Of a stretch of DNA of 64,000 nt, positions 1-63,230 are shown piece by piece (position 1 is the first letter of the stretch; each line of letters begins with the position of its first letter). The translations under genes were made by a program, and so were the position numbers. Origin of the DNA: Escherichia coli (GTDB taxonomy: Bacteria > Pseudomonadota > Gammaproteobacteria > Enterobacterales > Enterobacteriaceae); NCBI RefSeq assembly GCF_965641715.1, contig NZ_OZ282455.1; one strand, 5' to 3'. Under the pieces are notes generated by a model that had not been told where the DNA came from, made no database searches, and saw only the letters and a program-made list of their open reading frames with translations.

Positions 1-79
1 TAAGGCCGCGCAGCCCGAGCCTCAGCCGCAACCGCCGGAGGGGGAGGATTACGGGTTTTCAGACGATATCCCGTTCTGA
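1..79 (+). CDS. ssb: single-stranded DNA-binding protein, 3' end only (partial)
   Basis: Frame ending at the TGA at 77-79 translates ...PEPQPQPPEGEDYGFSDDIPF*, the Pro/Gln-rich tail and acidic DDIPF tip typical of SSB C-termini; position matches plasmid leading-region order ssb-psiB-psiA. Confidence 0.6.
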   Translation, partial: KAAQPEPQPQPPEGEDYGFSDDIPF

Positions 80-97
80 CTGGCCTGACTGTGATAA

Positions 98-370
<273 letters not shown>

Positions 371-428
371 GAGAGGTGCCGGACGCGCGAACGTCCGGCA
401 GGACATAAGCAATTATAAGGGGATGATT

Positions 429-2387
429 ATGCCTGTAACGAAGTGTGAACCAGAAACCACCCGCAAAGCAAGCCGTAAATCTGCAAAAACGCAGGAAACA
501 GTCCTGTCTGCCCTGCTGGCGCAGACGGAGGAAGTGAGCGTGCCGCTGGCCTCACTGATTAAGTCACCGCTGAATGTGCGCACGGTGCCGTATTCTGCGG
601 AGTCCGTCAGCGAACTGGCAGGGTCCATTCAGGGCGTCGGACTGCTGCAGAATCTGGTCGTGCATACCCTGCCTGGTGAGCGCTACGGTGTCGCCGCAGG
701 TGGTCGCAGACTGGCAGCACTCAATATGCTGGCTGAGCGTGGAATCATTCCGGCTGACTGGCCTGTCCGCGTGAAAATTATTCCGCAGGAACTGGCGACG
801 GCTGCATCGATGACCGAGAACGGTCATCGCCGGGATATGCACCCTGCCGAACAGATTGCCGGATTCCGCGCAATGGCGCAGGAAGGCAAAACAGCGGCAC
901 AAATCGGTGATTTGCTGGGCTATTCACCCCGCCACGTTCAGCGAATGCTGAAACTGGCAGACCTTGCGCCTGTCATCCTTGATGCGCTGGCAGAAGACCG
1001 CATCACCACAGAGCACTGTCAGGCGCTGGCGCTGGAGAACGACACCGCGCGTCAGGTGCAGGTGTTTGAAGCTGCCTGTCAGTCGGGATGGGGCGGAAAA
1101 CCGGAAGTACAGACCATTCGTCGTCTGGTGACCGAAAGTGAAGTGGCGGTGGCGGGGAACACTAAATTCCGCTTCGTGGGGGCTGATGCCTTCTCGCCAG
1201 ATGAACTGCGCACTGATTTGTTCAGCGACGATGAGGGTGGCTATGTGGACTGTGTTGCGCTCGATGCCGCCCTGCTGGAAAAACTCCAGGCTGTTGCAGA
1301 GTACCTTCGGGAAGCTGAGGGCTGGGGATGGTGTGCCGGACGCATGGAGGCCGTTGGTGAGTGCCGTGAAGATGCCCAGGCATACCGCAACCTGCCGCAG
1401 CCGGAAGCAGTGCTGACGGAGGCGGAAGAAGAACGCCTGAACGAACTGATGGCACGTTACGACGCACTGGAAAACCAGTGTGAGGAATCTGACCTGCTGG
1501 AAGCAGAAATGAAGCTGATGCGCTGCATGGCGAAGGTCAGAGCGTGGACGCCGGAGATGCGTGCCGGAAGCGGTGTGGTGGTGTCCTGGCGTTATGGCAA
1601 CGTGTGTGTCCAGCGTGGTGTGCAGTTGCGCAGCGAGGATGACGTGGCTGACGACGCTGACCGCACGGAACAGATGCAGGAGAAAGCGTCAGTGGAGGAA
1701 ATCAGTCTGCCACTGCTGACGAAAATGTCTTCCGAACGCACGCTGGCAGTCCAGGCGGCACTCATGCAGCAACCGGACAAATCTCTGGCACTGCTGGCAT
1801 GGACGCTCTGCCTGAATGTGTTTGGCAGCGGGGCGTACAGTAGTCCCGCCAGAATTTACCTGGAATGTGGGCATTACTCACTGACCAGCGCTGCGCCGTC
1901 AGGGAAGGAAGGTACCGCATTCATGGCGCTGATGGCAGAGCACTTTCGCCTTGCTGCCCTGCTGCCGGATGAATGGGAACGGGACATGACGACGTTCCTG
2001 TCACTCAGCCAGGAGGTGCTGTTATCCCTGCTCAGTTTCTGCACTGCATGCAGCATCCACGGCGTTCAGACCCGTGAGTGTGGTCACACGTCACGCAGTC
2101 CGCTGGACTCGCTGGAAACCGCCATCGGCTTTCACATGCGCGACTGGTGGCAGCCGACAAAAGCAAACTTCTTCGGACACCTGAAAAAGCCGCAGATTAT
2201 CGCAGCCCTGAATGAGGCAGGACTGTCCGGTGCCGCACGGGACGCGGAGAAGATGAAGAAAGGTGATGCGGCTGAACATGCAGAGCACCATATGAAAGAC
2301 AACCGCTGGGTTCCAGGCTGGATGTGTGCACCACATCCACAGACAGATGCCACTGAACGCACCGATAACCTGGCTGATGCCGCCTGA
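429..2387 (+). CDS. ParB-like nuclease domain protein (leading-region, 652 aa)
   Basis: Long ORF; N-terminal region has ParB/Srx-like signature (LQNLVVH...GERY.VAAGGRRLAAL); AAGGGG RBS 6 nt before the ATG at 429; lies upstream of psiB as in IncF/IncI leading regions. Confidence 0.8.
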   Translation: MPVTKCEPETTRKASRKSAKTQETVLSALLAQTEEVSVPLASLIKSPLNVRTVPYSAESVSELAGSIQGVGLLQNLVVHTLPGERYGVAAGGRRLAALNMLAERGIIPADWPVRVKIIPQELATAASMTENGHRRDMHPAEQIAGFRAMAQEGKTAAQIGDLLGYSPRHVQRMLKLADLAPVILDALAEDRITTEHCQALALENDTARQVQVFEAACQSGWGGKPEVQTIRRLVTESEVAVAGNTKFRFVGADAFSPDELRTDLFSDDEGGYVDCVALDAALLEKLQAVAEYLREAEGWGWCAGRMEAVGECREDAQAYRNLPQPEAVLTEAEEERLNELMARYDALENQCEESDLLEAEMKLMRCMAKVRAWTPEMRAGSGVVVSWRYGNVCVQRGVQLRSEDDVADDADRTEQMQEKASVEEISLPLLTKMSSERTLAVQAALMQQPDKSLALLAWTLCLNVFGSGAYSSPARIYLECGHYSLTSAAPSGKEGTAFMALMAEHFRLAALLPDEWERDMTTFLSLSQEVLLSLLSFCTACSIHGVQTRECGHTSRSPLDSLETAIGFHMRDWWQPTKANFFGHLKKPQIIAALNEAGLSGAARDAEKMKKGDAAEHAEHHMKDNRWVPGWMCAPHPQTDATERTDNLADAA

Positions 2388-2441
2388 TGAACAACCACAC
2401 CGCCCCGCCGGAGACGGGGCGGCAGCAAGGGAGATACCGTG

Positions 2442-2876
2442 ATGAAAACTGAACTGACCCTGAATGCCCTGCAGTCCATGAACGCACAGGAATATGAAGA
2501 TATCCGTGCTGCGGGAAGCGATATGCGCCGTAATCTCACTCACGAGGTGATGCGTGAAGTGGACGCACCGGCTAACTGGATGATGAATGGCGAGTATGGC
2601 AGTGAGTTCGGGGGCTTTTTCCCCGTCCAGGTTCGTTTCACGCCAGCCCACGAACGTTTCCACCTGGCATTATGTTCGCCGGGAGACGTCTCTCAGCTCT
2701 GGATGCTGGTTCTGGTGAATTGTGGTGGACAGCCTTTCGCCGTCGTTCAGGTGCAACATATCTTCACGCCTGTCGCTATCAGTCACACGCTGGCGCTTGC
2801 CGCGACACTTGATGCGCAGGGGTACAGTGTTAACGACATCATCCATATCCTGATGGCAGAAGGAGGTCAGGCATGA
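2442..2876 (+). CDS. psiB: plasmid SOS inhibition protein PsiB
   Basis: 144-aa product [27 protein letters not shown]...ILMAEGGQA matches my recollection of PsiB along its length; stop overlaps psiA start. Confidence 0.9.
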
Positions 2877-3592
2877 GCGCACGTTCACGGGCACTGATCC
2901 CCCTCAGCGCAGAGCAACAGGCCGCCATGCAGGCTGTGGCTGTCACCGAACAACGTCGTCGTCAGGGACGCACACTTTCAGCATGGCCTTATGCCAGCGC
3001 TTTCTTTCGCTGCCTGAATGGCAGTCGCCGGATTTCGCTGACCGATCTCCGCTTTTTTGCTCCTGCGCTGACGAAGGAGGAATTTCATGGCAACCGTCTC
3101 CTGTGGCTGGCTGCCGTGGATAAACTGATTGAAAGTTTTGGTGAAGTCTGTGTTCTTCCCCTGCCATCCGATGCGGGGCATCGTCTGTTCCCGTCCGTTC
3201 CTTTTCGTGAAGGTGAGCGGCGTCGTCAGAAAACCACGCTGACAGAGCAGAAATACAGCCGCCAGCGGGAACGTGAGGCAGAACGACGGGAACTGGAATA
3301 CCAGACATGTTTTGCTCAGGCGCAGATTGACCTTGCGTTTCATACTCCCGCCACGGTCGGAAGCTGGTTGTCCCGCTGGTCTGGTGTTGTTGAGGAGCAT
3401 GATCTGGAAACGATTTTCTGGGGGTGGTGCGGGCGTTTTCCATCACTGTCATCATTTGACCGGTTTTTCTGGCAGGAGGAACCACTCTGGCGGCTGATTT
3501 TTGAAGCCGGTGAGGCCGGTCGTGGTGCACCGGTACAGGTACGTGCACTTGAGCAGTGGATGATCCCGAACAAGCTGGAGAACGCAATATGA
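2873..3592 (+). CDS. psiA: plasmid SOS inhibition protein PsiA
   Basis: 239-aa ORF immediately after psiB with ATGA overlap; size and position as in F/IncI psiB-psiA operon. Confidence 0.8.
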
Positions 3593-4185
3593 TGAAATCA
3601 GACGAACAATATCACGTTCCCGTGTGGATGCGACCTCTGTTGCCGTTGCTCTGCAATACCGGTGGTAATGATCCGGAGGAACTGCTGAATGATACAGAAA
3701 CCACCGCCAGTGCGAATATTGTCCGTTATGTACTGATAGTTGCAGTGCGGTCGCAGATTGATCTGCTGCAGCTACTGTACAGGAAAGGACTGTTGCGCAC
3801 AGAGATACCAGGTGGCTTTTCACCGGAAGAAGCGCAGGAACTCCTGGATAATCTGGTGCGCAGCCATATCAGCAAGGCGCTGTCGGGTGAGCGAATGGCA
3901 GCCCGTGACAGAAATGCCGATCTGACCTGGATTCGCCAGCAACTGGTCGATGCCGCCTGGTTTGTCCGTGCCACACTGGAAGCGCATGGGATGGGCGTCG
4001 GAAATGAGAGTCCCTCTGCTCCGCCGGAGACAATGCCGGACATACAGACACGGGAACTGGTTATGTTGATCAAGCGACTGGCATCATCGCTGAAAGCGGT
4101 GAAACCCGACAGTAGCGTGGTGCGTGAAGCGCAGGACTGGCTGTGCGACAGAAAACTTGTGGATATCACAGATATTCTCCGGTGA
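3589..4185 (+). CDS. hypothetical protein, translationally coupled to psiA
   Basis: ORF whose ATG overlaps the psiA stop (ATGATG); no family recognised. Confidence 0.55.
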   Translation: MMKSDEQYHVPVWMRPLLPLLCNTGGNDPEELLNDTETTASANIVRYVLIVAVRSQIDLLQLLYRKGLLRTEIPGGFSPEEAQELLDNLVRSHISKALSGERMAARDRNADLTWIRQQLVDAAWFVRATLEAHGMGVGNESPSAPPETMPDIQTRELVMLIKRLASSLKAVKPDSSVVREAQDWLCDRKLVDITDILR

Positions 4186-4199
4186 ACCAGACATGTATA

Positions 4200-4647
4200 T
4201 TTTACGCAGGGACACGCCGATCATGATCGTTTCATATCAGGGGTGGTCTGGAGGTCATGCGGCGTGTCCTCTGCACTCGCCGGAATAAGGAAGTCGCCGG
4301 CGGCTCCGCTTTTACCCGGCCATGCGGGGCATGGCCTTGTGGGTTTTCAGCTCTGTGGCCTCAGCGTCGTGTGCGGGCTGTGCCGTGCCTCCATCTTAGC
4401 CGGGCTGGCAGGGATGCAAGGGTACGCTTCGCCGCTGCGGTCACCCGGTCCCTCCTTCCCGTCTGCCGTGATTTTCCGGTCGTTCACCCGCTCAGATTTC
4501 GCGGTCTCACCCTCCAACTCCCGCCAGCCGTGTGCGTCAGGCTGCGGCTTCCCTTGCGCCCTGTGCATCCCCGCCTTATCGCCCGGCTTTTATGGAGGCA
4601 CGGCACCGCCCGGTGCCGCAGAACATGTGACTATGGAGGATTCGGGA
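4200..4647. promoter_or_regulatory. GC-rich structured leader upstream of ardA; candidate single-strand promoter region
   Basis: Roughly 450 bp of GC-rich sequence with no convincing coding signal (it only appears as an in-frame extension of the ardA ORF); inference from the known ssDNA-promoter arrangement upstream of leading-region genes. Confidence 0.3.
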
Positions 4648-5148
4648 ATGTCTGTTGTTGCACCTGCTGTATACGTTGGAACCTGGCACAAATACAACTG
4701 TGGAAGTATCGCCGGACGCTGGTTTGACCTGACCACGTTTGATGATGAGCGCGACTTTTTCGCCGCCTGCCGTGCTCTTCACCAGGATGAAGCCGATCCT
4801 GAACTGATGTTTCAGGATTATGAGGGATTCCCGGGGAATATGGCCTCTGAATGCCATATCAACTGGGCCTGGGTTGAAGGCTTCCGCCGGGCACGGGATG
4901 AAGGCTGCGAAGAGGCTTATCGTCTCTGGGTGGATGATACCGGTGAGACGGATTTTGACACCTTCCGCGATGCCTGGTGGGGCGAGGCTGACAGTGAGTA
5001 GGCTTTTGCGGTTGAGTTCGTCAGTGATACCGGCCTGCTGGCTGACGTGCCGGAGACGGTGGCGCTCTATTTTGACTATGAGGCGTATGCGCGGGATTTA
5101 TTCCTGGACTCCTTCACCTTTATTGACGGTCATGTGTTCCGTCGGTGA
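4648..5148 (+). pseudogene. ardA: antirestriction protein ArdA interrupted by an in-frame amber codon at codon 118 (4999-5001)
   Basis: [33 protein letters not shown]... matches remembered ArdA; ORF stops at TAG 4999-5001 but the same frame continues AFAVEFVSDTGLLADVPETVALYFDYEAYARDLFLDSFTFIDGHVFRR* to 5148, giving the 166-aa ArdA length if the TAG were CAG. Confidence 0.8.
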
Positions 5149-5496
5149 TTTACTCCCCCGCTCCGGCGGGGGTATGGCCTGCCAGGCCGCCGGAAAACCC
5201 TGGCAGGCTTACGCCTGCCTGAAATGCAGGAGGGCCGCGCCTGCGGCGCTGCCCTTCCTGCCCGTCATGGTGTGAGGCATTTTTCTGTTATGTCGTTTCT
5301 GTTGTTCTGATTTCCGGAGGCGGGGACACCTTCGGCTCCCGGCTGCCTGGCGGCATCCGGTCGTCAGGCCCGACTCCGACAGGCAGCTGCTGGCGCACCC
5401 GCCAGTCTCCGCCGAACCCGCTGGCGCGGTTTCGGGCTGCCGCTACGGTCCGATGTCTGAAAAACCAGGCTTGCAGCGACCGTTCCGGTCGCGCCG

Positions 5497-5860
5497 CCCC
5501 TGTCGCGCCGGAAACGGCGCTCCCTGCACACCTGACGGTGTGTAAGGCCACTGCGCCTGATGGCGCAGTCAACCCTTCCGCCGCCACCCCTGCGGCCTGT
5601 TTCCCGCTGTGGACTTTCCGGGGGCTGGAGTAACCACATCCCGTTTCAGCAGTCTAGGGGAAGATATACCGTCCACAAAATTTTTAGCCATAAACCCGGC
5701 AAAAAATTTTGCGTCCGCCCCCGGACAGCTGCCCCGTGACGTGGTGACGGACGCCCCATCGGAAAGGTCCACTGCGGGGAGAAACCCCGAAGAAGTGGAC
5801 GGCAGAAGGGGCTTTCGCCCCTCCGGGGAGCAACCGGTCGGCCCGGCGACCTGATTCAGC
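5497..5860 (+). repeat. Frpo-like structured repeat, copy 1 (candidate ssDNA promoter)
   Basis: About 360 bp highly similar to 8372-8725; contains inverted repeats CACACC..GGTGTG and CTGCGCC..GGCGCAG; sits directly upstream of an ORF start. Confidence 0.6.
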
Positions 5861-5876
5861 AGAAGGAGACGTTTTC

Positions 5877-6311
5877 ATGACAGTCAGCAGCACGATTTCC
5901 GTTTTTTGCCGCGACGGGGTGTTCCGTACCGTTTACTGCCACCTGCACGGGGAGCCGACCTGGAACGGTCGCATCCTGCATACCCACTATGCCACCGGTC
6001 AGCAGGCCGAAGCCCTGGTTGAACACGGTGATATCCGTTGCCTCGGTCCCCGTTGCGACAAACCCGCCGGGCATACGCTTCAGAACCCGGTGGACGGTGT
6101 GACGGCTTATTACGGACGTGACAGTGGTTTCCGGATGGACAGTGAGGCGCGTGAGTACCGTTCTTTCAGGGAGGCTATTGCCACTGAAAGCACTGAAGAG
6201 GTGCGCTTCCATTATGTGTTCATCGACGGCTACTGGAAGGTGATGTACCGCACGCCGGAAGGCTGGAAGATGAAAGCGCTCGCGCTGGCACTGCGTCGCT
6301 GTCCGAAATGA
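5877..6311 (+). CDS. hypothetical protein (144 aa) downstream of Frpo-like repeat 1
   Basis: Clean ORF with GGAGA RBS; no family recognised. Confidence 0.6.
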   Translation: MTVSSTISVFCRDGVFRTVYCHLHGEPTWNGRILHTHYATGQQAEALVEHGDIRCLGPRCDKPAGHTLQNPVDGVTAYYGRDSGFRMDSEAREYRSFREAIATESTEEVRFHYVFIDGYWKVMYRTPEGWKMKALALALRRCPK

Positions 6312-6317
6312 AAAAAA

Positions 6318-6338
6318 GGCAGGGCGATAAACCCTGCC
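6318..6338 (+). terminator. hairpin after orf144 (weak terminator candidate)
   Basis: GGCAGGG-CGATAAA-CCCTGCC stem-loop preceded by an A-run; no strong T-tract on plus strand. Confidence 0.3.
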
Positions 6339-6404
6339 TCTCTCCGCCGGCGCTTCCCCGCCAGGAAGTCCGGCATCTCAATCACTATCTATGGAGATTA
6401 TGCC

Positions 6405-6671
6405 ATGAGACCATCAATTATCTTCGCAACCGCCGAGTATGTAAAGCGTCTGCGTGAAGAGTGCCTGCGGGAGAATAAACCCCTGCACCGCCATACCCGC
6501 TTCAGACGTCAGGAGCTGGCACAGGATGAGATTAACCCGGACGTCCTGGCGATGAGCGGCCATATCGCCAGACGCTGCAGTGAGCAGAAGCGGGTGCGTA
6601 TCCCCGCTATGAAAGTCAGCGAATGGGGCCACCTGCTCCGCGCGCTTGAAATTGAGCGGGTCTGCCACTGA
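6405..6671 (+). CDS. hypothetical protein (88 aa)
   Basis: ORF preceded by GGAGA; basic, no family recognised. Confidence 0.4.
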   Translation: MRPSIIFATAEYVKRLREECLRENKPLHRHTRFRRQELAQDEINPDVLAMSGHIARRCSEQKRVRIPAMKVSEWGHLLRALEIERVCH

Positions 6672-6735
6672 TTAACCCTTGCCGTCTGCCTGTGCAGGCG
6701 GCAGGATACGTTCAGACATCTCACCAGGAGGAACC

Positions 6736-7662
6736 GTGAGTAAGAAGAAAACCACCACGACGCCCACGCCGCATGATGCCGCGTTCCGGTCGTTCCTGGC
6801 GAATCCCGACGTCGCCAGAGATTTTCTGGAACTGCATCTTCCGGCGGAGTACCGGCAGTTGTGCGACCTGTCCACGCTGAAGCTGGAACCCGCCACCTTT
6901 GTTGAGCCGGACCTGCATCAGTACGCCAGCGATATCCTCTGGAGTGTGAAAACCACCGGGGGTGAAGATGGCTATGTTTATACGCTCATCGAGCACCAGA
7001 GCACCGAAAATCTGTACATGCCTTTCCGCATGTTACGTTACAGTGTGGCGGCGATGCAGAGACATCTGGAGCAGCACAAAACGTTGCCACTGGTCATTCC
7101 GGTGCTGTTCTATCACGGTGAGCGCAGCCCGTACCCGTACAGCATGAACTGGCTGGACTGTTTTGAGAATCCGGCGCTTGCGGCTAAAATATACACAAAG
7201 CCGTTTCCGCTGGTTGATATCACTGTCGTTGATGACAATGAAATCATGAACCATCGCCGGATGGCCGCACTGACGCTGCTGATGAAGCATATCCGCCATC
7301 GTGACATGATGGAGCTGCTGGACAAACTCCCGCAGGTCATGGTGGAAATTTCAGACGAGCAGGTGCGTGTTCTGATTCATTACATCGTTAACGCAGGGGA
7401 CTCTGTATCACCGGAATTTATGCGGGCGCTGGCTGAGCGTCTGCCGCAGCATGAGGATAAACTGATGACTATCGCAGAACGTCTTGAGCAAAAAGGTCGC
7501 CAGGAAGGCAGGATGGAAGGACGCATGGAAGGACGCATGGAAGGAGCGCTTGAAAAAGCCCTGGCTATTGCGTGCCAGCTTCAGAAAATGGGGATGACGC
7601 CGGAGCAGATTAAGCAGGCTACCGGACTTTCCGATGACGAACTGAAGAAAATCACTCACTGA
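6736..7662 (+). CDS. Rpn-family (YhgA-like, PD-(D/E)XK transposase_31) recombination-promoting nuclease
   Basis: HDAAFRSFL...LIEHQS...PLVIPVLFYHGE motif block typical of Rpn/YhgA-like proteins; GTG start after AGGAGG chosen; C-terminal tail carries GRMEG tandem repeat. Confidence 0.75.
   Translation: MSKKKTTTTPTPHDAAFRSFLANPDVARDFLELHLPAEYRQLCDLSTLKLEPATFVEPDLHQYASDILWSVKTTGGEDGYVYTLIEHQSTENLYMPFRMLRYSVAAMQRHLEQHKTLPLVIPVLFYHGERSPYPYSMNWLDCFENPALAAKIYTKPFPLVDITVVDDNEIMNHRRMAALTLLMKHIRHRDMMELLDKLPQVMVEISDEQVRVLIHYIVNAGDSVSPEFMRALAERLPQHEDKLMTIAERLEQKGRQEGRMEGRMEGRMEGALEKALAIACQLQKMGMTPEQIKQATGLSDDELKKITH
7495..7547 (+). repeat. 15-bp tandem repeat inside rpn encoding GRQEG-RMEG-RMEG-RMEG
   Basis: ggacgcatggaagga repeated in tandem; seen directly. 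Confidence 0.8.
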
Positions 7663-7671
7663 GTAAACATC

Positions 7672-7702
7672 ACAGCCCGGCAAAATGCCGGGCTTTTTTG
7701 TC
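7672..7702 (+). terminator. rho-independent terminator after rpn
   Basis: AGCCCGGC-AAAAT-GCCGGGCT hairpin followed by TTTTTTG. Confidence 0.75.
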
Positions 7703-7723
7703 AGCAGGAGCAGAGCAAACAGC

Positions 7724-7882
7724 ATGACGATTGCAGAACGTCTTATTCAAAAAGGCGCACTTGAAGTGGCGCGGGAAATAGCCTGCCGGCTGCGGGATAT
7801 GGGCTGGACGCCGGAACGGATTCAGGAGGCAACCGGACTTTCCGGTGAAGAACTGAAAAAGCTGTTTCCTGATGAGCAGTAG
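7724..7882 (+). CDS. standalone RpnS-like small protein (paralogue of the Rpn C-terminal tail)
   Basis: 52-aa product MTIAERLIQKG...TPERIQEATGLSGEELKK aligns with Rpn residues from the internal Met (MTIAERLEQKG...TPEQIKQATGLSDDELKK); DNA also visibly similar. Confidence 0.5.
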   Translation: MTIAERLIQKGALEVAREIACRLRDMGWTPERIQEATGLSGEELKKLFPDEQ

Positions 7883-7912
7883 CCTGGCATTCAGCCAGGC
7901 TGTGAATCACGC

Positions 7913-8164
7913 TCACACATCCTCTGCCGTTTCCCCCAGTTCATTTTCCAGTCGCCTGATGATATCTGCCTTACGCATCCCCTGCATGTGAGGCAGCAGG
8001 TCACGGACTGAAAGTGCCTGGGTGGTCCTCCAGACGGTGACGTCCACCTGTTCCGCATTTTCCCAGGCGTGCCATGTTCTCTGCGTCACGCCAAATTCTC
8101 TGGCCGCTTTTTCGCGTGACCAGAGCATGCTTTTTCGCCAGATTCGCAGTTCCCAGCCGGTCAT
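7913..8164 (-). CDS. XRE-type helix-turn-helix transcriptional regulator
   Basis: 83-aa ORF with WSREKAAREFGVTQRTWHAWEN helix-turn-helix-like segment; one of only two leading-region protein genes on the minus strand. Confidence 0.55.
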   Translation of the reverse strand: MTGWELRIWRKSMLWSREKAAREFGVTQRTWHAWENAEQVDVTVWRTTQALSVRDLLPHMQGMRKADIIRRLENELGETAEDV

Positions 8165-8179
8165 AAAACACCTTTAAAA

Positions 8180-8266
8180 AAGTGAAAAAACTTCACTTTA
8201 TTTTATCATCATAATCACCAAATTAACGCGATAAATAAGTGTGAAAAAGTGAAGAAATTTCACTTT
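8180..8266. promoter_or_regulatory. two palindromic operator-like sites (AGTGAA-N4/5-TTCACT) in the promoter region of the HTH gene
   Basis: Perfect inverted repeats at about 8181-8198 and 8248-8264 in an AT-rich region immediately upstream of the minus-strand HTH gene. Confidence 0.5.
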
Positions 8267-8371
8267 TTTTGCTTGTAAATGTCGTGCGGTTTTCTCTGTT
8301 TTCACCTGTGCGGGAGTGGTGTGCCAGTGACCACCACATGCCATTGTTGTGCCGTCGTTTTTCTTCAGTCG

Positions 8372-8725
8372 CGCCGTATGCGGCGCTCCCTGCACACCTT
8401 ACGGTGTGTAAGGCCACTGCGCCTGATGGCGCAGCTGTCTCTGCCTGTCTGCCGCCGCACTGCGGCCTGTTCTCCGCAGACGGACTTTCCGGGGGTACAT
8501 ACATGACCACATCCCGTTTCAGTCGTCCAGGGGAGAGATGTACCAGCCACAAAACTTTTTGCCGCAGGCGTCAAAAACTTTTGCGTCTGCCCCCGGACAA
8601 CTGCCCCGTGACGTGGTGAGCGTCCCCCGTCGGAAAGGTCCACTGCGGGGAAATCCCCGAAGACCCGGACGGCAGAAGGAGCTTCGCTCCTCCGGGAAAT
8701 GACCTGGCTGACCCGGCAGTCGTGA
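8372..8725 (+). repeat. Frpo-like structured repeat, copy 2 (candidate ssDNA promoter)
   Basis: Paralogous to 5497-5860 including the GCGCTCCCTGCACACCT.ACGGTGTGTAAGGCCACTGCGCCTGATGGCGCAG core; ends just before an ORF start. Confidence 0.6.
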
Positions 8726-8740
8726 CGATGAGGAGACAAT

Positions 8741-9592
8741 GTGATGAATCAGACTTTACCCACTGCTGACCTGAATACTGCCGGCACGACAGATGTTATT
8801 CCGTCTGTGGCTATCGACCGCATCATCGCGCAGCGTAACGAAGGTATTGCACTGTTCATGCAGGCGATGGAATGCCTGGCGACAGCGCGCAAGATTCTGC
8901 TCGATGCGTCAGGTGATATTTTTCTTTACGGGTTTGAAGACTGCGTGACTGATTCCGTTCGTCGCATAGATAAACCGGAAGAAGCGAAAAGGAATATCAC
9001 CCGTCTTGCCGACCGGAAAATCTGGGATCGCCTGATGACAGATACGGGCATGTACACCTTCATGAGTTCATGCCAGCGTGATGAGTGGAACAGCCAGCTG
9101 ATGAGCGACACCTGTCCTGAAATCACCCTGGACAATGTACTGGCAACATTCCGCCATCTGAATGCCTGCAAGATGCAGACATTTGAACAGGGACTGATTG
9201 ATGTCTACCGGAAATTGTCATGGGATTACAGAACCAATAATCCCTGCCGTCTGGGTAAGAAAATCATTATTGAAAACCTGCTGTACCGCTGGAGTAACGG
9301 GCGTGTGACGCTGGACTGCAGCGGACGGGAGGCACTGGATGACCTGGTACGTCCGTTTTATCTGCTGGAGGGGCGCAACGTTCCTGACTTCAGGAACAGT
9401 ATCGGGGCGCAGTATGGTGAATTTCTCGGGAACGGCGACAATGTCGGTAAGCTGTTAGAAGGGGAATATTTTACGGTGCGTGGCTACCAGAAAGGGACCG
9501 TACACATTGTCTTTAAGCGTTCTGACCTTGTTGAAAAACTGAATGATATTATTGCACGGCATTATCCAGGTGCATTGCCGCCACGAGTCTGA
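8741..9592 (+). CDS. hypothetical protein (283 aa) downstream of Frpo-like repeat 2
   Basis: ORF with GAGGAG RBS; no family confidently recognised. Confidence 0.6.
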   Translation: MMNQTLPTADLNTAGTTDVIPSVAIDRIIAQRNEGIALFMQAMECLATARKILLDASGDIFLYGFEDCVTDSVRRIDKPEEAKRNITRLADRKIWDRLMTDTGMYTFMSSCQRDEWNSQLMSDTCPEITLDNVLATFRHLNACKMQTFEQGLIDVYRKLSWDYRTNNPCRLGKKIIIENLLYRWSNGRVTLDCSGREALDDLVRPFYLLEGRNVPDFRNSIGAQYGEFLGNGDNVGKLLEGEYFTVRGYQKGTVHIVFKRSDLVEKLNDIIARHYPGALPPRV

Positions 9593-9602
9593 TTAAACAG
9601 AA

Positions 9603-9636
9603 AAGCCCTGGTATTTATGCCGGGGCTTTTTTTTCT
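9603..9636 (+). terminator. rho-independent terminator after orf283
   Basis: GCCCTGG..CCGGGGC hairpin followed by TTTTTTTT. Confidence 0.7.
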
Positions 9637-9677
9637 GTAATCATCATAATCTCAGAACACGATGTGACATTGTCACA

Positions 9678-10019
9678 TCAATTGTTGTTCATATCGATGC
9701 CATCTTTCCTGCCTGAATCTGTCTTTTTAGGTGCTGTTTTAGAGGAAGAACGGCGGGATGGTTTTTTCGATTCTGCTTCCCGAATAATGTCACGAAGTGC
9801 CTTCTCTCCTACTTCATACCCTGCATTTTTGAGCGTGTCACGAACATCTGCCAGTGTATAACCCTTTGTCCTTACCAGGACAATAATGTCATCACGAATG
9901 GCATCAAGAAAATCACGCAATGTTTTCCGTTGAGCGGTGAGATCTGGCAATTCCGATAAAGCAGCTTTTGCCAGCTGGATGTCATCATCTGAGTAAAATT
10001 TTTTAGAAGCCATTGGCAC
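9678..10019 (-). CDS. hypothetical protein with basic Ser/Lys-rich C-terminal tail
   Basis: 113-aa ORF from the six-frame track, divergent from nikA across oriT; no family recognised. Confidence 0.45.
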   Translation of the reverse strand: MPMASKKFYSDDDIQLAKAALSELPDLTAQRKTLRDFLDAIRDDIIVLVRTKGYTLADVRDTLKNAGYEVGEKALRDIIREAESKKPSRRSSSKTAPKKTDSGRKDGIDMNNN

Positions 10020-10149
10020 TTTCTCTCCGTTTCATGTTGAAGTCTGATTTTATCATCAAAAACTGACTCCTGGCAGGGCTGCGCCCTGCCTCTGCCGTCT
10101 GCATAAGACTATGATGCACAAAAATAACAGGCTATAATGGCCTGAAAAA

Positions 10150-10246
10150 CGGGACAGGATGTGCAATTGTAATACCGTCACACGCGACGCTATTACAATT
10201 GCCATCTGGTCAGGGCTTCGCCCCGACACCCCGTAAGGAGCCTGAA
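10150..10246. other. oriT: origin of transfer (oriT) region
   Basis: Imperfect inverted repeat AATTGTAATACCGTCACACGCGACGCTATTACAATTG immediately upstream of nikA; position and sequence consistent with my recollection of R64 oriT; nick site not resolved. Confidence 0.6.
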
Positions 10247-10579
10247 GTGAGTGATAGTGCGGTAAGAAAGAAAAGTGAGGTACGGCAAAAGACAGTTGTC
10301 AGGACACTCAGATTCTCTCCTGTTGAGGATGAAACCATCAGGAAAAAAGCTGAAGATTCCGGACTTACTGTATCTGCTTACATCCGAAATGCAGCACTGA
10401 ATAAGCGAATTAACTCCCGTACAGATGATGCTTTTCTGAAGGAGTTAATGAGACTGGGAAGGATGCAGAAGCATCTGTTTGTTCAGGGAAAAAGAACCGG
10501 TGACAAGGAATACGCAGAAGTGCTTGTTGCCATAACCGAACTTACAAATACATTGCGTAAACAGTTAATGGAAGGTTGA
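10247..10579 (+). CDS. nikA: relaxosome accessory protein NikA (110 aa)
   Basis: GTG start after AAGGAG gives 110 aa (VSDSAVRKKSEVRQKTVVRTLRFSPVEDE...), the size I recall for R64 NikA; directly upstream of the relaxase. Confidence 0.8.
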   Translation: MSDSAVRKKSEVRQKTVVRTLRFSPVEDETIRKKAEDSGLTVSAYIRNAALNKRINSRTDDAFLKELMRLGRMQKHLFVQGKRTGDKEYAEVLVAITELTNTLRKQLMEG

Positions 10580-10589
10580 GGATTCTCCG

Positions 10590-13289
10590 GTGAATGCAGT
10601 CATTCCAAAAAAGAGAAGGGACGGCAAGTCTTCGTTCGAAGACCTGGTATCCTACGTCTCTGTCCGGGATGACATGACCGATGAGGAACTGGATTTATCT
10701 TCTTCTTCGCAGGCTGAACAACCGCACCGAAGCCGTTTCAGTCGCCTTGTTGATTATGCGACACGTCTTCGAAATGAGTCATTCGTGGCGCTGGTTGATG
10801 TCATGAAGGACGGCTGCGAATGGGTCAACTTTTATGGTGTCACCTGCTTTCATAACTGTACTTCTCTTGAAACTGCCGCTGCAGATATGGAGTACATTGC
10901 CCGGCAGGCACACTATGCAAAAGATGACACTGATCCTGTTTTTCACTACATTCTTTCCTGGCAGTCACATGAAAGCCCGCGTCCGGAACAGATTTATGAC
11001 AGTGTACGTCATACGCTGAAATCACTCGGCCTTGCCGACCATCAGTATGTCTCTGCCGTGCATACTGATACAGATAATCTGCACGTCCATGTGGCTGTTA
11101 ACCGGGTACACCCTGAAACGGGTTATCTGAACCGGTTATCCTGGAGTCAGGAAAAACTCAGTCGTGCCTGCCGTGAGCTTGAACTGAAGCATGGTTTTGC
11201 TCCGGATAACGGTTGCTGGGTCCATGCACCGGGAAATCGTATCGTTCGCAAAACCGCCGTTGAACGTGATCGCCAGAACGCGTGGACACGCGGGAAAAAA
11301 CAAACTTTTCGCGAGTATGTCGCGCAGACAGCGGTCGCTGGTTTACGCAGTGAACCTGTAAATGACTGGTTATCCCTGCATCGTCGTCTTGCGGAAGATG
11401 GTCTGTACCTGTCTCAGATGGACGGAAAATTTCTGGTGATGGATGGCTGGGATCGCAACAGGGAAGGTGTACAGCTTGACTCGTTTGGTCCCTCCTGGTG
11501 TGCAGAAAAACTCATGAAAAAAATGGGTGACTACACGCCAGTACCAAAAGACATTTTCAGCCAGGTGGAAGCACCAGGACGCTATAATCCGCACTTCATT
11601 GCCGCTGATGTTCGCCCGGAAAAAATCGCTGAAACAGAAAGTCTGCAGCAGTATGCCTGTCGTCATCTTGGAGAACGTCTGCCGGAAATGGCACGGGAAG
11701 GACGGCTGGAAAACTGCCAAGCTATTCACCGCACACTGGCTGAAGCGGGATTATGGATGCGTGTTCAGCATGGTCACCTGGTTATCTGTGACGGTTATGA
11801 TCATAACCAGACTCCCGTTCGTGCTGACAGCGTATGGTCGCTGCTGACGCTCGACAATGTGAATCAACTCGATGGTGGCTGGCAGCCTGTACCAACAGAT
11901 ATTTTCCGCCAGGTTACGCCAACAGAACGCTTCCGTGGTCGTCGTATGGAGAGCTGTCCTGCGACCGATAAAGAATGGCACCGTATGCGTACAGGCACGG
12001 GGCCGCAGGGGGCTATCAAACGCGAACTGTTTTCTGACAAAGAAAGTCTGTGGGGATACAGCATCAGCCATTGTAGCCCTCAGATTGAAGAAATGATCAC
12101 ACAGGGTGAGTTTACCTGGCAGCGTTGTCATGAGCTGTTTGCACAACAGGGACTGATGCTACAGAAACAACATCACGGGCTTGTTGTCGTTGATGCCTTT
12201 AATCATGAGCAAACGCCGGTGAAGGCCAGCAGCATTCATCCTGATCTGACACTGGGGCGTGCAGAGCCACAGGCCGGACCTTTTGTGAGTGCCCCAGCAG
12301 ATTTGTTTGACAGGGTGCAACCTGAAAGTCGCTATAACCCGGAGCTGGCTGTCAGTGACAGGTACGGGGTCAGCAGTAAACGTGACCCAATGCTGCGCCG
12401 GCAGCGACGTAAAGCCAGAGCTGAGGCCCGTGCTGACCTGCGTGCCCGCTATCTGGCATGGCGTGAACAATGGCGTAAACCAGATCTGCGTTATGGGGAA
12501 CGTTGTCGGGAAATTCATCAGGCATGCCGTCTGCGGAAGTCACACATTCGTGCGCAGTACGATGATCCGGCATTACGTAAGCTGCATTATCACATTGCAG
12601 AAGTTCAGCGAATGCAGGCATTGATCAGGCTGAAAGAAGACATCAGGGATGAGCGACAGAAACTTATTGCTGACGGGAAGTGGTATCCACCCTCTTACCG
12701 TCAGTGGGTCGAAACTCAGGCTGCTCAGGGAGACAGGGCTGCTGTATCGCAGCTGAGAGGCTGGGATTATCGCGATCGCCGTAAAGACAGGTCACGCACA
12801 ACGACGACAGACCGCTGTGTCGTGCTTTGTGAACCGGGCGGAACGCCGGTATACGGTAATACCGGTGATCTCGAGGCCCGTCTGCAGAAGAACGGGAGTG
12901 TTCGTTTCCGTGACCGTCGGACGGGAGAGTTTGTCTGTACGGATTATGGTGACAGGGTTGTTTTCCGTAATCACCATGACCGCAATGCGCTGGCAGATAA
13001 ACTGGATTTGATTGCACCGGTATTATTCGGGCGTGATCCTCGCATGGGTTTTGAACCAGAAGGAAACGACAAACAATTTAACCAGGTCTTTGCTGAAATG
13101 GTTGCCTGGCATAATGTGACAGGCCGTACCGGTCACGAAGACTACAGGATTACGCGACCGGACGTGGATCATCACCGTGAAGGAAGTGAACGCTACTACC
13201 GCGATTATATCGCGGCGAACAGCAACGATGACGCATCACTGCCTCCGCCGGAGCAGGATAAACGCTGGGAACCGCCTTCTCCAGGTTAA
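10590..13289 (+). CDS. nikB: relaxase NikB (MobA/MobL-type, 899 aa)
   Basis: 899-aa ORF with histidine-triad-like motif HTDTDNLHVHVAVNRV; length matches recalled R64 NikB. Confidence 0.85.
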   Translation: MNAVIPKKRRDGKSSFEDLVSYVSVRDDMTDEELDLSSSSQAEQPHRSRFSRLVDYATRLRNESFVALVDVMKDGCEWVNFYGVTCFHNCTSLETAAADMEYIARQAHYAKDDTDPVFHYILSWQSHESPRPEQIYDSVRHTLKSLGLADHQYVSAVHTDTDNLHVHVAVNRVHPETGYLNRLSWSQEKLSRACRELELKHGFAPDNGCWVHAPGNRIVRKTAVERDRQNAWTRGKKQTFREYVAQTAVAGLRSEPVNDWLSLHRRLAEDGLYLSQMDGKFLVMDGWDRNREGVQLDSFGPSWCAEKLMKKMGDYTPVPKDIFSQVEAPGRYNPHFIAADVRPEKIAETESLQQYACRHLGERLPEMAREGRLENCQAIHRTLAEAGLWMRVQHGHLVICDGYDHNQTPVRADSVWSLLTLDNVNQLDGGWQPVPTDIFRQVTPTERFRGRRMESCPATDKEWHRMRTGTGPQGAIKRELFSDKESLWGYSISHCSPQIEEMITQGEFTWQRCHELFAQQGLMLQKQHHGLVVVDAFNHEQTPVKASSIHPDLTLGRAEPQAGPFVSAPADLFDRVQPESRYNPELAVSDRYGVSSKRDPMLRRQRRKARAEARADLRARYLAWREQWRKPDLRYGERCREIHQACRLRKSHIRAQYDDPALRKLHYHIAEVQRMQALIRLKEDIRDERQKLIADGKWYPPSYRQWVETQAAQGDRAAVSQLRGWDYRDRRKDRSRTTTTDRCVVLCEPGGTPVYGNTGDLEARLQKNGSVRFRDRRTGEFVCTDYGDRVVFRNHHDRNALADKLDLIAPVLFGRDPRMGFEPEGNDKQFNQVFAEMVAWHNVTGRTGHEDYRITRPDVDHHREGSERYYRDYIAANSNDDASLPPPEQDKRWEPPSPG

Positions 13290-13320
13290 AAAAAAGGCCG
13301 CGCCAGAATCCGGCGCGGCC
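13288..13320 (-). terminator. terminator hairpin between convergent nikB and trbC
   Basis: GGCCGCGCC-AGAATC-CGGCGCGGCC hairpin flanked by an A8 run (a T-run on the minus strand). Confidence 0.6.
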
Positions 13321-13325
13321 ACTGT

Positions 13326-15617
13326 TCAGTACATTCCGTCCCAGTCCGGACGGTTGGTTTTTTTATGATGAAACCCGTTTACAGGACGCCCTGTCGGGTG
13401 GTTATTGTCCTGTGGAAGCGTTAACAGGTTTATACCTGCTCTTTCTGCTCTCACTGATATCTGATTTTCCTCTTTTGTTTCAGGTAGTTCTGGTCTGTTC
13501 AGCGTGATATAGCGAATTCGTCGCTCTTCCCGTGTGGTCGTTTTAAGCGTATTCACCGCTGTTTCCCACAAGGCACTTTCACGTGCGTTGATATCTGTGT
13601 CGTACTCTTCCAGCATTGCCATAGCCGCCTGACGTCCTGCAATGCGTTGCTGGAATGTATCCACGATCGTGTGCGGCTCTGTGCGAATTTTTCGTCTTTT
13701 TCTGGAGGGTTTTGCAGTCAGGACGCCAATGATGGCACTGACATTTTCCGGTGACGGTATTCGACGTTGAGTAGTACGGGGAACAAGACGGCGGAGACGG
13801 TCCAGGCGTGGCGCATCCACGCTGATATACCTGTTTATAACAACGGGATCGCTGCTGCAGCTTTTCTCATCGTCAGGGATGAAGAATGATGCTGATGGTA
13901 CGGTTTCTCCCCGGAAAATAGAAAAGAACTCGCCAGGATGAAGTTCAATCAACTCCTGAACATTTATCTTGCTTTCCATCAGGATGCTGATTTGTGGGCT
14001 GTCAATCCATGATTCACCAAATATGCCGTCCTGACGCTGCAGGTTGTTCATTCTCGCCCTGGCTTCTTCACCGGCGGCGCTTTTCAGCGTTCTGGCCGTA
14101 CTACCCTCGCTGACAATCCTGCCGGCAAATTTTGTCCCCGTGTTCTGCATCAGTGTTGCAGTATTCGTGGCTGTTGTCTGTCCTTCTATACGTTCCTGGT
14201 CCTGTGCCATCAAAATCAGAGCAAAATCCAGTGAACGCACCTGAGTGGCTTCCACAGCAATACGGTCCGTATAGTATGCCCCCACTTCATCAAGGAAACA
14301 CAGATAAGGGAAACGCCCCTTATATTTTTTGACTTCCAGTGCATCGGAATCAGTTCCTTCGAGGCGGTAGCCCAAATCACGGGCGAGAATCATACTTTTC
14401 TGGGTGATAAACATTCGTCCAAGAGCAGACGTTGTATGCGCTGATGTATCCAGAGCGGGGATCATTACCATCAGAATCCTGTCGCTGTGAATGCTGTCAC
14501 GGATATCGATATCACCGGAATCTTCAGCAAAAATATCCCCGAATGCTTCCGTGAATGTGCTGAAAGTTTCAGAAAACTGCCCGGAGAGATAAGCATGTTG
14601 TTTTCTGGGTTCTTCCGTCCAGGCTGATGGTGTCCTGACCAGCGACAGGTCGAAACCGGGAACGTCCTGAAGGTAGTTACGTAACGGTGCGATAGCTTCT
14701 TCCGGCCACTGATCATCGAGGCCACGACAGTAAAGTTTGGCCATCCCTTCGAGAGTCATATGTTCACGGAGCATCTGCAGCGACATTGTTTTGCCTTCGC
14801 GCACACACCAGAATTTAGTACCAAATACCAGTGCCTTATTCATGGCAATGGCCCGGGACTGCCACTCGCCCCCCTGGACGTTCTGGGGCAGCATTGACTG
14901 CATTGTCTCCGCTGTGAATGCCTCAGTGCTGTAACAGAAGGGATTCCAGGTATTTGACTGAGGACGCGTTTTTTCACCACTCAGAATGATTTCACTGCGG
15001 GATTTTCCTCCGTTCATGAAGTTAATGACTTCCACATCGTCTTCACGTCCAAAGCGTCTGGCCAGATACCAGATCGTTCTTGCCGTATCATTCTGTGCCT
15101 TGCCATCGACAAGGGTGAATCCTCTTGCCCAGCAAAGTGGGTTAATCGCCCAGGCAAAGATGGTTTCCGTTTTACCGCCACCGGTGGTGGCGAAAAACAT
15201 TATATGGCGGGTCAGATCGTCCATACTCAGCCATAACTCCCTGCCAATATCCCTGACGCGTTGATAACCAACATAGAATATGCCGCTGGCCGGTGATTCC
15301 AGAATGACCTCATACTGGAACAGGGTTGGCCAGAAGCTGAAAAGACTTCTTTTAATCATTCTGTCCTGTGACGGGTCAGCACATTCCAGCGTCATGGGCA
15401 TACGAAGAGGGCAGCGCCATCGCTGCAGACTAAATACCAGCATTGTTATCAGTGTGAACAACAGACATGCCGGTAATGCAAGTGGCCAGATAAAACTGGC
15501 CACAAGACTTGCCACCAGGCAAAAGCCATAGATATTGAGACTCTGGAGTGCATTCCAGACAGGATTTCCCCAGGCTGTACGGTGTAAAAGCTCGGGGTTA
15601 ACGCGATGTTCACTCAT
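13326..15617 (-). CDS. trbC: conjugal transfer protein TrbC (P-loop NTPase)
   Basis: 763-aa ORF with Walker A FATTGGGKTE and N-terminal TM segments; gene order trbA-trbB-trbC-nikB as in R64. Confidence 0.75.
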   Translation of the reverse strand: MSEHRVNPELLHRTAWGNPVWNALQSLNIYGFCLVASLVASFIWPLALPACLLFTLITMLVFSLQRWRCPLRMPMTLECADPSQDRMIKRSLFSFWPTLFQYEVILESPASGIFYVGYQRVRDIGRELWLSMDDLTRHIMFFATTGGGKTETIFAWAINPLCWARGFTLVDGKAQNDTARTIWYLARRFGREDDVEVINFMNGGKSRSEIILSGEKTRPQSNTWNPFCYSTEAFTAETMQSMLPQNVQGGEWQSRAIAMNKALVFGTKFWCVREGKTMSLQMLREHMTLEGMAKLYCRGLDDQWPEEAIAPLRNYLQDVPGFDLSLVRTPSAWTEEPRKQHAYLSGQFSETFSTFTEAFGDIFAEDSGDIDIRDSIHSDRILMVMIPALDTSAHTTSALGRMFITQKSMILARDLGYRLEGTDSDALEVKKYKGRFPYLCFLDEVGAYYTDRIAVEATQVRSLDFALILMAQDQERIEGQTTATNTATLMQNTGTKFAGRIVSEGSTARTLKSAAGEEARARMNNLQRQDGIFGESWIDSPQISILMESKINVQELIELHPGEFFSIFRGETVPSASFFIPDDEKSCSSDPVVINRYISVDAPRLDRLRRLVPRTTQRRIPSPENVSAIIGVLTAKPSRKRRKIRTEPHTIVDTFQQRIAGRQAAMAMLEEYDTDINARESALWETAVNTLKTTTREERRIRYITLNRPELPETKEENQISVRAERAGINLLTLPQDNNHPTGRPVNGFHHKKTNRPDWDGMY

Positions 15618-17907: not shown

Positions 17908-18140
17908 GACAAAGTCTCCATTTCTGGAATTTAAATCAAACGGAAAGGTTAAAAATTTATTTGCAGGCGATAAGAGCTAACCAGAGGAATTAGCCGTGCG
18001 ATAAAAGGATTGTTGCAGATACGAAAGTCGTTAGAATAGCTGCGGGCGCTTGAGGCTGTATGCCGAAAGCGTTTTGTGGACGGTATACAGCAGAAAGCCC
18101 CTGGAGATTTTTTTATCAATCAACCAAGGGCTCTACTGTA

Positions 18141-18344
18141 ATGCCTAGACAACATTATAGTAGCCCGATAACCGCCGTAAGGCAATGGAGGGGCTATGAT
18201 GCCACAGCGAACGTTTTTAATGATGTTAATCGTCATCTGTGTGACGATTCTGTGTTTTGTCTGGATGGTGAGGGATTCGCTTTGCGTACTCCGGCTCCAG
18301 CAGGGAAACACAGTGCTTGTGGCAACGTTAGCCTACGAAGTTAA
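18141..18344 (+). CDS. pndC: PndC (mok-type overlapping reading frame)
   Basis: Reading frame overlapping pndA and ending inside it, as in hok/mok and pndA/pndC. Confidence 0.45.
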   Translation: MPRQHYSSPITAVRQWRGYDATANVFNDVNRHLCDDSVFCLDGEGFALRTPAPAGKHSACGNVSLRS

Positions 18345-18351
18345 ACGTTAA
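18199..18351 (+). CDS. pndA: Hok-family toxin PndA (50 aa)
   Basis: MPQRTFLMMLIVICVTILCFVWMVRDSLCVLRLQQGNTVLVATLAYEVKR: single TM helix plus conserved DSLC motif of Hok/PndA. Confidence 0.8.
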   Translation: MPQRTFLMMLIVICVTILCFVWMVRDSLCVLRLQQGNTVLVATLAYEVKR

Positions 18352-18674: not shown

Positions 18675-18828
18675 CGGATTTTCTCTCTGTATTTATGGGT
18701 AGTTATCGAACTGAATGTGCCAGTTTTTTCAGGAGACGGCAAAGTTGAGATGATTGGTTCTGATTCAGAGCATGAGTTTCCTCGGTGTGACGGGCATGTC
18801 GGGCGGATTTTGAGAAACAACAGATGTA

Positions 18829-18860
18829 AAAAAACCGACTGGTGAGGTCGGTTTTTTTAC
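18829..18860. terminator. bidirectional rho-independent terminator
   Basis: A7-ACCGACTGGTGAGGTCGGT-T7: hairpin flanked by A-run and T-run. Confidence 0.7.
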
Positions 18861-18890
18861 TGTTCCGTTACAGAGTGGGTGGCCCTGACC

Positions 18891-18914
18891 GGAGGAAATC
18901 TCTTTTCAACTAAC
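18891..18914 (+). repeat. direct repeat copy 1 (GGAGGAAATCTCTTTTCAACTAAC)
   Basis: 24-bp element repeated at 19078-19101 with one mismatch. Confidence 0.7.
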
Positions 18915-62913: not shown

Positions 62914-63230
62914 CTAAAAACGCTATCACCGAGTTCCTACGCTCATTGGTGATAGCCCAGACGGGGGTAGGAATACCGGCGTCATCGGAAACCGGCCAGG
63001 CTAATGCCTGCCCCGCCTGAGCTACCATAGATGACGACAAGAAATACAAGTTCCTGTCTTTATGGTATGGCAAAAAACGACGCCAAATGAAGAAATTAAC
63101 TTCTGCGCCGACGATGACTACGCGGGTTCCTACGCCCGATCACAGTTTTGCCTGTGACCAGTAAAGGGTACTTAGTATAACGCACCGAGTCAACTAACAG
63201 CTTAAAAAACATACAAAAAAGCGTCAAAAC

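Follow-up and report, generated by a model that had tools for sequence, protein, structure and literature searches.

The DNA analysed here (the window) is a stretch of 64,000 nucleotides from Escherichia coli contig NZ_OZ282455.1 and is an IncI1-type plasmid leading region. At bases 5497-6671 a structured repeat of the kind that serves as a single-strand promoter is followed on the plus strand by two small genes, orf144 and orf88. The evidence below strongly supports the view that this stretch opens an early ('zygotically induced') IncI1 operon, with its promoter and first two genes. Comparative analysis also supported a predicted conserved gene, at the orf144-orf88 junction, for a three-hairpin antisense RNA of ~100 nt predicted to lie opposite the orf88 start. 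This RNA gene is new in the present analysis and was absent from an earlier description made from the letters alone (the sequence-only reading). The features are listed in Table 1.

Table 1. Coordinates of the features at and around the orf144-orf88 locus; RNA features are predictions.
Feature	Position	Strand	Details
Frpo/ssi-type class-1 single-strand promoter repeat	5502-5860	-	Hairpin in the transferred strand
Core imperfect hairpin	5608-5772	-	~80 bp, A/T-rich apex; single-stranded DNA fold
orf144 (YdfA/YgcA)	5877-6311	+	16.5-kDa alpha/beta protein; large mobile-element family
Predicted cis-antisense small RNA	6306-6411	-	~100 nt; three hairpins, dG -49.3, z = -5.3
Antisense intrinsic terminator	6310-6338	-	Stem GGCAGGG/CCCTGCC at 6318-6338, then T7
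orf88 (YdfB)	6405-6671	+	10.5-kDa basic protein, pI 9.9
Antisense sigma-70-type promoter	6417-6445	-	TTTACA 6445-6440, 17 nt, GATAAT 6422-6417; 10/12 matches
GC-rich tetraloop hairpin	6681-6702	+	No T-run; directly after the orf88 stop; read from the sequence
rpn	6736-7662	+	Rpn/YhgA-like PD-(D/E)XK nuclease family; from annotation
Strong bidirectional intrinsic terminator	7674-7694	both	
Second repeat copy, nearest oriT	8368-8728	-	Upstream of the DUF4942 gene at 8741-9592

The annotated gene order is ssb, DUF905, ParB-like, psiB, psiA, a hypothetical gene, ardA, hypothetical genes for 144 and 88 amino acids (aa), rpn, a small open reading frame (ORF), a helix-turn-helix (HTH) gene (minus strand), DUF4942, a mobC-like gene (minus strand), nikA and nikB. 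The origin of transfer (oriT) lies just left of nikA, at ~10.1 kb. Since both are to the right of the locus, the minus strand is the transferred one, and plus-strand genes such as orf144 and orf88 are therefore templated by it. The sequence-only reading had placed both genes in an ardA/psiB/ssb-type context and on the strand suited to expression from incoming single-stranded DNA (ssDNA), and both statements agree with this arrangement, in which leading genes of the ardA, psiB/psiA and ssb type surround orf144 and orf88. Bases 5300-6900 were found at 100% identity in pRKI3099a (IncI-gamma/K1, MOBP, MPF_I), and most of that stretch is present in more than 1,900 plasmid records. Over 4200-6762 the window and plasmid pESBL share 98.4% identity, and the counterpart proteins of pESBL are identical in 143 of 144 residues (orf144) and 87 of 88 (orf88), so that expression data from pESBL carry over directly. 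Wen et al. 2025 (PMC12672017) identified six leading-region operons of pESBL whose induction, 15 min after transfer, reaches up to ~500-fold. The promoters of three of them are ssi1-3 of ColIb-P9 ('class 1', Frpo-like); all operon starts were mapped by rapid amplification of cDNA ends, and RNA-seq showed transcription from ssDNA in recipients for ssi1-3 (PMC12672017). The region had previously been drawn as three ssi operons with the products SSB, YfhA, PsiB-PsiA, ArdA, PndC and several ORFs of unknown function (Benz et al. 2023, PMC10104558). The setting, that is the promoter and the early operon, is thus already known; the orf144 and orf88 proteins are uncharacterised.

The ~360-bp repeat upstream of orf144 had been described as an Frpo-like single-strand promoter, and both parts of that description were supported. 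The two copies in the window are 79.5% identical over 371 columns (94% and 87% in the exact-seed blocks), and a third copy, upstream of ssb in pESBL and outside the window, is 90% identical to the one at orf144. The central part of the repeat aligns with Frpo1 and Frpo2 of the F plasmid (78-81% by blastn against F/IncF copies). When folded as ssDNA, the minus strand of 5480-5880 (401 nt) gave a free energy (dG) of -114 kcal/mol (z = -7.15 against shuffles), and the region of the core hairpin (5590-5800) gave -54.4 (z = -6.3). By alignment, then, the repeat is a homologue of the ssi promoters of ColIb-P9 and the Frpo promoters of F, and its location between ardA and oriT makes it probably ssi2 in the ColIb-P9 nomenclature. 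The 3' arm of the core hairpin reads, by eye, AAAAATTTT, then TTGTGG, 16 nt and TAGACT. We infer that AAAAATTTT is an UP-like element, with TTGTGG as the -35 and TAGACT as the -10 box; the RNA would start at ~5735-5740 (plus-strand coordinate), leaving a 5' untranslated region of ~140 nt before orf144. Very probably, then, orf144 and orf88 are switched on from ssDNA while the plasmid enters a new cell. A separate structured element upstream of ardA (4287-4640) forms a hairpin that differs from the Frpo-type repeat and is more diverged; the element that precedes klcA in pESBL shares 93.5% identity with it, a match that fits the 'class 2' ssDNA promoter pair described for that plasmid.

Both ORFs had been given exact coordinates in the sequence-only reading, and each has a plausible ribosome site (AAGGAG 8 nt before the ATG of orf144, GGAG 8 nt before that of orf88). 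Comparison with the diverged copy in locus L002 gave 15 synonymous and 7 non-synonymous changes for orf144 and 27 and 15 for orf88, corresponding to ratios of non-synonymous to synonymous substitution rates (dN/dS) of 0.13 and 0.12. By this measure both are genuine protein-coding genes under purifying selection. Neither protein was matched in Pfam, NCBIfam, PADLOC or PDB sequence searches, and their description as uncharacterised was borne out. The statement that neither belongs to a recognised family held for those databases but has to be amended for orf144, which falls in PHROG 1987/23089 and carries the database name 'PndC'. The term 'two-gene unit' did not survive, for two reasons: the linkage of orf144 to orf88 is confined to IncI plasmids, and the transcription unit most likely also takes in rpn. 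Because each gene is found without the other outside IncI, the two do not form a conserved pair.

The antisense promoter falls within codons 5-14 of orf88. The RNA predicted to start from it would be antisense to both the Shine-Dalgarno sequence (GGAG, 6393-6396) and the start codon (6405) of orf88, and would end at a terminator whose T7 run overlaps the stop codon of orf144. The minus strand of 39 distinct diverged loci from ~20 genera was scanned for this arrangement: the promoter was recovered in 37 of the 39, the terminator in 38 and both in 36. On the plus strand of the same 39 windows the corresponding counts were 0 and 1, and shuffled windows yielded a promoter in 3.5% and a terminator in 4.6%. 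The distance between promoter and terminator was held at ~100 nt across protein identities of 31-45%, and the layout was also found in the IncF homologue (43% protein identity, little DNA similarity) and in Serratia. All 31 distinct homologous RNAs folded to exactly three hairpins (mean z = -4.95), with the anti-Shine-Dalgarno sequence within hairpin 1 in 30 of the 31. Plain MAFFT alignment of these RNAs aligned the terminator helix only, and the other hairpins were analysed per sequence. Compensatory exchanges were seen at the base of hairpin 2 and in the terminator stem, where GC is exchanged for AU and CG for GC or UA. When four IncI alleles are compared, no synonymous site within the promoter hexamers varies, whereas five in the spacer do. 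No family for the RNA was found in Rfam, no annotation of it at this locus in RefSeq, and no mention of an antisense RNA at orf88 in a literature search. IesR-1 of pSLT was considered as the same RNA and rejected, as it is 597 nt long and has a 162-aa target.

A word-indexed protein search with orf88 returned near-identical sequences and frameshift variants only, which gave it the appearance of an orphan. That status was rejected, because the 'distant' matches were the frameshift variants and tblastn against plasmids uncovered a family with more than 3,000 records at 38-45% identity. A profile search returned 488 clusters, all hypothetical or named 'YdfB/YdaB'. A sample of 38 loci from ~20 Enterobacterales genera was retrieved, and every one of the 38 belongs to a leading region, with psiB, klcA/ardA or ssb nearby. 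In each of them the gene that directly follows the orf88 homologue is an orphan N6 methylase, DUF4942, DUF3560 or ssb gene or, in IncI only, rpn. In IncF plasmids it directly follows an Frpo1-like element, and in Serratia/Enterobacter-type plasmids it is preceded by a 114-aa gene, which was rejected as a relative of orf144 (hhalign probability 0.1%). The leading region of F has no orf144, and F has no orf88 homologue; its YgeA was considered as one and rejected. Loci L036 and L038 (Raoultella and Entomohabitans contigs) hold two family copies within a single leading region: one precedes DUF4942 and the other an N6 methylase. The family has a strongly conserved C-terminus, R-x-V-R-I-P-A-M-x-x-S-E-W-G-Q-V-L-R-T-L-E-L-K-R-A-F-N. 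The protein is hydrophilic and basic (grand average of hydropathy, GRAVY, -0.66; isoelectric point, pI, 9.9), and no recognised DNA-binding domain reached significance in it. It is probably a small basic nucleic-acid-binding protein, and our best guess is that it acts transiently and would be costly if made continuously. The A-run at 6311-6317, after the orf144 stop, has seven A residues here and eight in some database entries; whether an N-terminally extended orf88 frame of 120 aa is open depends on the length of this run, and it is also the T-tail of the antisense terminator.

For orf144, full-length profile matches were obtained to PHROG 1987 (E = 5.3e-21, residues 1-126) and PHROG 23089 (E = 4.8e-19), both annotated as of unknown function, and an exhaustive search returned 1,981 representative clusters. 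Jumbo phages (GAP32, Serratia BF, Erwinia), T4-like phages, KVP40-like vibriophages and cyanophages carry relatives. Relatives are also found in stretches of small genes that all point one way, as is typical of phage early regions. One relative stands beside two ArdC genes in a Salmonella element, and another is on a contig with DUF4942, SIR2 and RadC. We read orf144 as a divergent representative of a family of mobile-element proteins that phages and plasmids share. The near-invariant residues of the family (T3, H22, D24, S54, H66, R81, D82 and R83) suggest an enzyme active site or a ligand pocket; the copy in the window retains H22, H66, R81 and D82 and carries the changes T3V, D24H, S54R and R83S. 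The AlphaFold2 model of orf144 is confident (predicted local distance difference test, pLDDT, 96.5) but has no PDB neighbour. Foldseek against AFDB50 returned family members only, all uncharacterised or mislabelled, and profiles of both proteins compared with the PDB gave chance matches only. Domain fusions in long relatives were rejected as a clue because they were inconsistent (one WYL_2, one gp32). In other IncI plasmids, among them L005 (8001-8432), this locus holds a second orf144 allele, 53-55% identical to the one here. Between the plasmids that carry the two alleles, orf144 showed 54.7% identity while PsiB, PsiA, ArdA, orf88, Rpn and DUF4942 are 95-99.6% identical, so that orf144 is the sole hypervariable gene of an otherwise conserved locus. 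The divergence looks like cassette-like replacement or diversifying selection; local hypervariability of this kind would be expected of an arms-race gene and is no proof of one. Given the phage and ArdC contexts and the allelic hypervariability, a counter-defence or host-takeover effector is the most likely identity, as a best guess. The sequence-only reading had noted that genes in such a context are often anti-defence or establishment factors; a role of that kind for orf144 and orf88 is plausible, on indirect evidence.

The name 'post-segregation killing protein PndC' is carried by more than 1,500 database entries and by the literature (PMC10104558); YdfA and YgcA are other names given to orf144. 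If the name were right, orf144 would serve the pnd system of post-segregational killing as leader or co-factor. The genuine pnd locus is at 18044-18351, 12 kb away: a sok match (Rfam RF01794) covers 18044-18201, the Hok-type gene PndA covers 18196-18351, and a Mok/PndC-like ORF of 94 aa (18060-18344) overlaps PndA. The ORF list holds no Hok-like ORF in or near 5877-6311. No Rfam match to a Sok-type RNA was obtained in 1-14000, nor in 6200-6520 at E <= 10. Homologues of orf144 also occur in lytic phages without hok genes. The identification was rejected on these grounds and can barely be credited; with pnd located at 18044-18351, 'PndC' on orf144 is a propagated annotation error.

Downstream of orf88 the tetraloop hairpin recurs after the IncF (L015, ~5190-5212) and Serratia (L017, ~6253-6273) homologues, in each case just before the ribosome site of the next gene. 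It seems to be part of the orf88 module, with RNA stabiliser, attenuator or processing site as candidate roles. From orf144 to rpn the plus strand showed no terminator. The latter gene is probably the third gene of the early unit, which most likely ends at the terminator at 7674-7694. A 65-aa ORF after rpn (7685-7882) starts inside this terminator and repeats the C-terminal tail of Rpn; the direct repeat (7541-7649 and 7752-7860) is 75% identical, with 52% by tblastn, and the ORF may be a free-standing Rpn C-terminal domain, that is an RpnS-like antitoxin. Between rpn and the oriT-proximal repeat lie the HTH regulator gene (7913-8164) and a small ORF (8198-8395), both on the minus strand. No other gene of the leading block is on that strand; expression of these two from the incoming DNA is therefore not to be expected. 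Elsewhere in the window, Rfam matches were obtained to C4 antisense RNA (62945-63032, minus strand), AgrB antisense RNA (18826-18913, minus strand) and the repZ pseudoknot (63885-64000, plus strand, cut by the window end).

These observations can be assembled into a model of the locus. On entry the minus strand alone would be present, and the hairpin of the repeat would rebuild a promoter in ssDNA, from which an orf144-orf88-(probably rpn) mRNA would be made towards oriT, up to 7674-7694. The antisense RNA would not yet be made, because its template is the plus strand, which is absent until complementary-strand synthesis; orf88 translation would therefore be limited to the single-stranded phase. 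Once the complementary strand is made, the hairpin promoter would be lost and the antisense promoter gained. The RNA would then pair with the Shine-Dalgarno sequence and AUG and block the remaining or read-through orf88 message, and would do so permanently in donors. Shut-off is currently attributed to loss of the ssDNA promoter only ('self-silencing'; bioRxiv 10.64898/2026.01.09.698686). The antisense RNA would add a post-transcriptional shut-off to that self-silencing, and the arrangement suggests, by inference, a timer set at strand conversion. The explanation as a whole, with an ssDNA-driven early operon, antisense shut-off of orf88 and a counter-defence or takeover role for orf144, is held with slightly better than even confidence. 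The more specific proposal, that the orf88 module is an undescribed strand-state timer, restricting a potent small DNA/RNA-binding protein to the first minutes in the recipient, and orf144 a new phage/plasmid counter-defence family with a fold absent from the PDB, is put forward tentatively, as a possibility that we do not favour as it stands.

The same antisense layout could instead belong to a type I toxin-antitoxin (addiction or abortive) module of the SymE/SymR or hok/sok kind, with the RNA as antitoxin and orf88 as toxin, serving plasmid stabilisation or competition between elements. Such a module would be expected to have a cis-antisense RNA over the ribosome site of a small ORF, and one is predicted here, conserved in 36 of 39 loci; toxin-antitoxin genes are over-represented in leading regions (PMC11541004), the leading region of F holds a hok-type module, and the downstream neighbour Rpn is of a nuclease family. 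Most type I toxins are hydrophobic, however, whereas orf88 is hydrophilic and basic, and no toxin family match was obtained for it in PADLOC, Pfam or NCBIfam. The two family copies in one leading region (L036, L038) also speak against an addiction module, and the fixed place upstream of methylase, DUF4942, DUF3560 or ssb genes looks more like that of a regulatory or functional partner; on balance a toxin role is unlikely. That fixed place, in 38 of 38 loci and with Rpn included, is in turn an argument for orf88 as a regulator or chaperone-like leader, perhaps a small DNA/RNA-binding controller, that times or couples expression of the downstream gene, with the antisense RNA tuning its level and with no special link to strand conversion. 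The conserved GC hairpin between the orf88-family stop and the next ribosome site and the basic character of orf88, with its weak HU-like and TCP ribbon-like similarities, point the same way. Yet no DNA-binding domain reaches significance in orf88, the downstream genes are mutually unrelated, and F-type plasmids without the orf88 family, F among them, express ssb straight from Frpo1; we regard this reading, too, as improbable.

It might also be held that the minus-strand signals are not an RNA gene at all, the hexamers being constrained by codons and the hairpin being a terminator or stabiliser of the upstream gene. The hexamers do overlap the conserved SI[IV] and VK codons, and in IncI and Serratia-type plasmids the stop codon of the preceding gene is directly adjoined by the A-run and the hairpin. 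Against this, the T-run is on the minus strand only, so that the hairpin is oriented as a minus-strand terminator, and the hairpin is kept in IncF plasmids in which no gene precedes it. The valine codon, moreover, is always GTA or GTC, which preserves the ACA of the -35 box, and the promoter-terminator distance is constant across diverged proteins. This explanation is accordingly judged quite unlikely, and a strand-dependent antisense shut-off of orf88 within an ssDNA-driven operon is preferred.

Several points weigh against the preferred explanation. When the Frpo-driven operon of F that is the counterpart of IncI ssi3 was deleted, isogenic transfer was unaffected, as cited in PMC10104558. 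The antisense RNA is proposed from comparative sequence evidence only; its covariation is modest, the anchored pair counts are not independent tests because they are drawn from the minimum free energy structure of each sequence itself, and conservation of the hexamers could partly reflect protein constraint, since they overlap conserved codons (I-I/V, V-K). The structure model of orf88 is weak (pLDDT 67.7) and its DNA-binding hints are marginal (PF14908 at 7e-4 in one of five members; TCP domain at E = 0.76). In orf144 four of the eight most conserved polar residues have been replaced, and if the family is enzymatic this copy may be inactive or retargeted. Nothing ties either protein to a particular defence system.

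Compared with ssi1-3 of ColIb-P9 and Frpo1-2 of F, the locus has a homologous hairpin, the same leading-region position and the same orientation to the transferred strand, with the early burst known in pESBL. The ssi and Frpo operons described there carry ssb, psiB, ardA and ygeA among others, whereas orf144, orf88 and rpn are functionally uncharacterised. No report of an antisense RNA layered on an Frpo-driven gene was found in the literature search. In its predicted design the antisense RNA resembles IS10 RNA-OUT/RNA-IN and SymR/SymE, with an outward-facing promoter inside the first codons of the target and a short structured RNA, ended by an intrinsic terminator, directed against the Shine-Dalgarno sequence and AUG. 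It has no sequence or Rfam relationship to them and, unlike them, would face a sense transcript that can be made from ssDNA while its own template appears only after strand conversion. ArdA, KlcA/ArdB, ArdC, PsiB and orphan methylases share the neighbourhood, the strand and the presumed timing (orf144 relatives stand beside ArdC, orf88 relatives beside orphan methylases and KlcA), but no sequence, profile or fold likeness was found between orf144 or orf88 and these or other characterised anti-restriction and anti-defence families. Members of PHROG 1987/23089 (e.g. GAP32_348, KVP40.0229) match orf144 over its full length and have conserved motifs in common with it, although the plasmid protein is without four of the near-invariant polar residues; as the phage copies are uncharacterised too, no function can be transferred.

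IncI1 plasmids are major carriers of extended-spectrum beta-lactamase and AmpC resistance, and expression in the first minutes decides their establishment. Within a known early operon, orf144 and orf88 have been a blind spot, with the wrong name 'PndC' spread through databases and papers. Follow-up is merited by the conserved antisense RNA and by orf144, which opens a phage/plasmid family of ~2,000 clusters that has no solved structure and no structural match. Since plasmids throughout the Enterobacterales have the orf88 module ahead of orphan methylases and further leading-region genes, findings made on it would generalise. The conserved antisense RNA, if true, would provide a concrete mechanism that confines a leading-region protein to the single-stranded phase, beyond the promoter-loss model.

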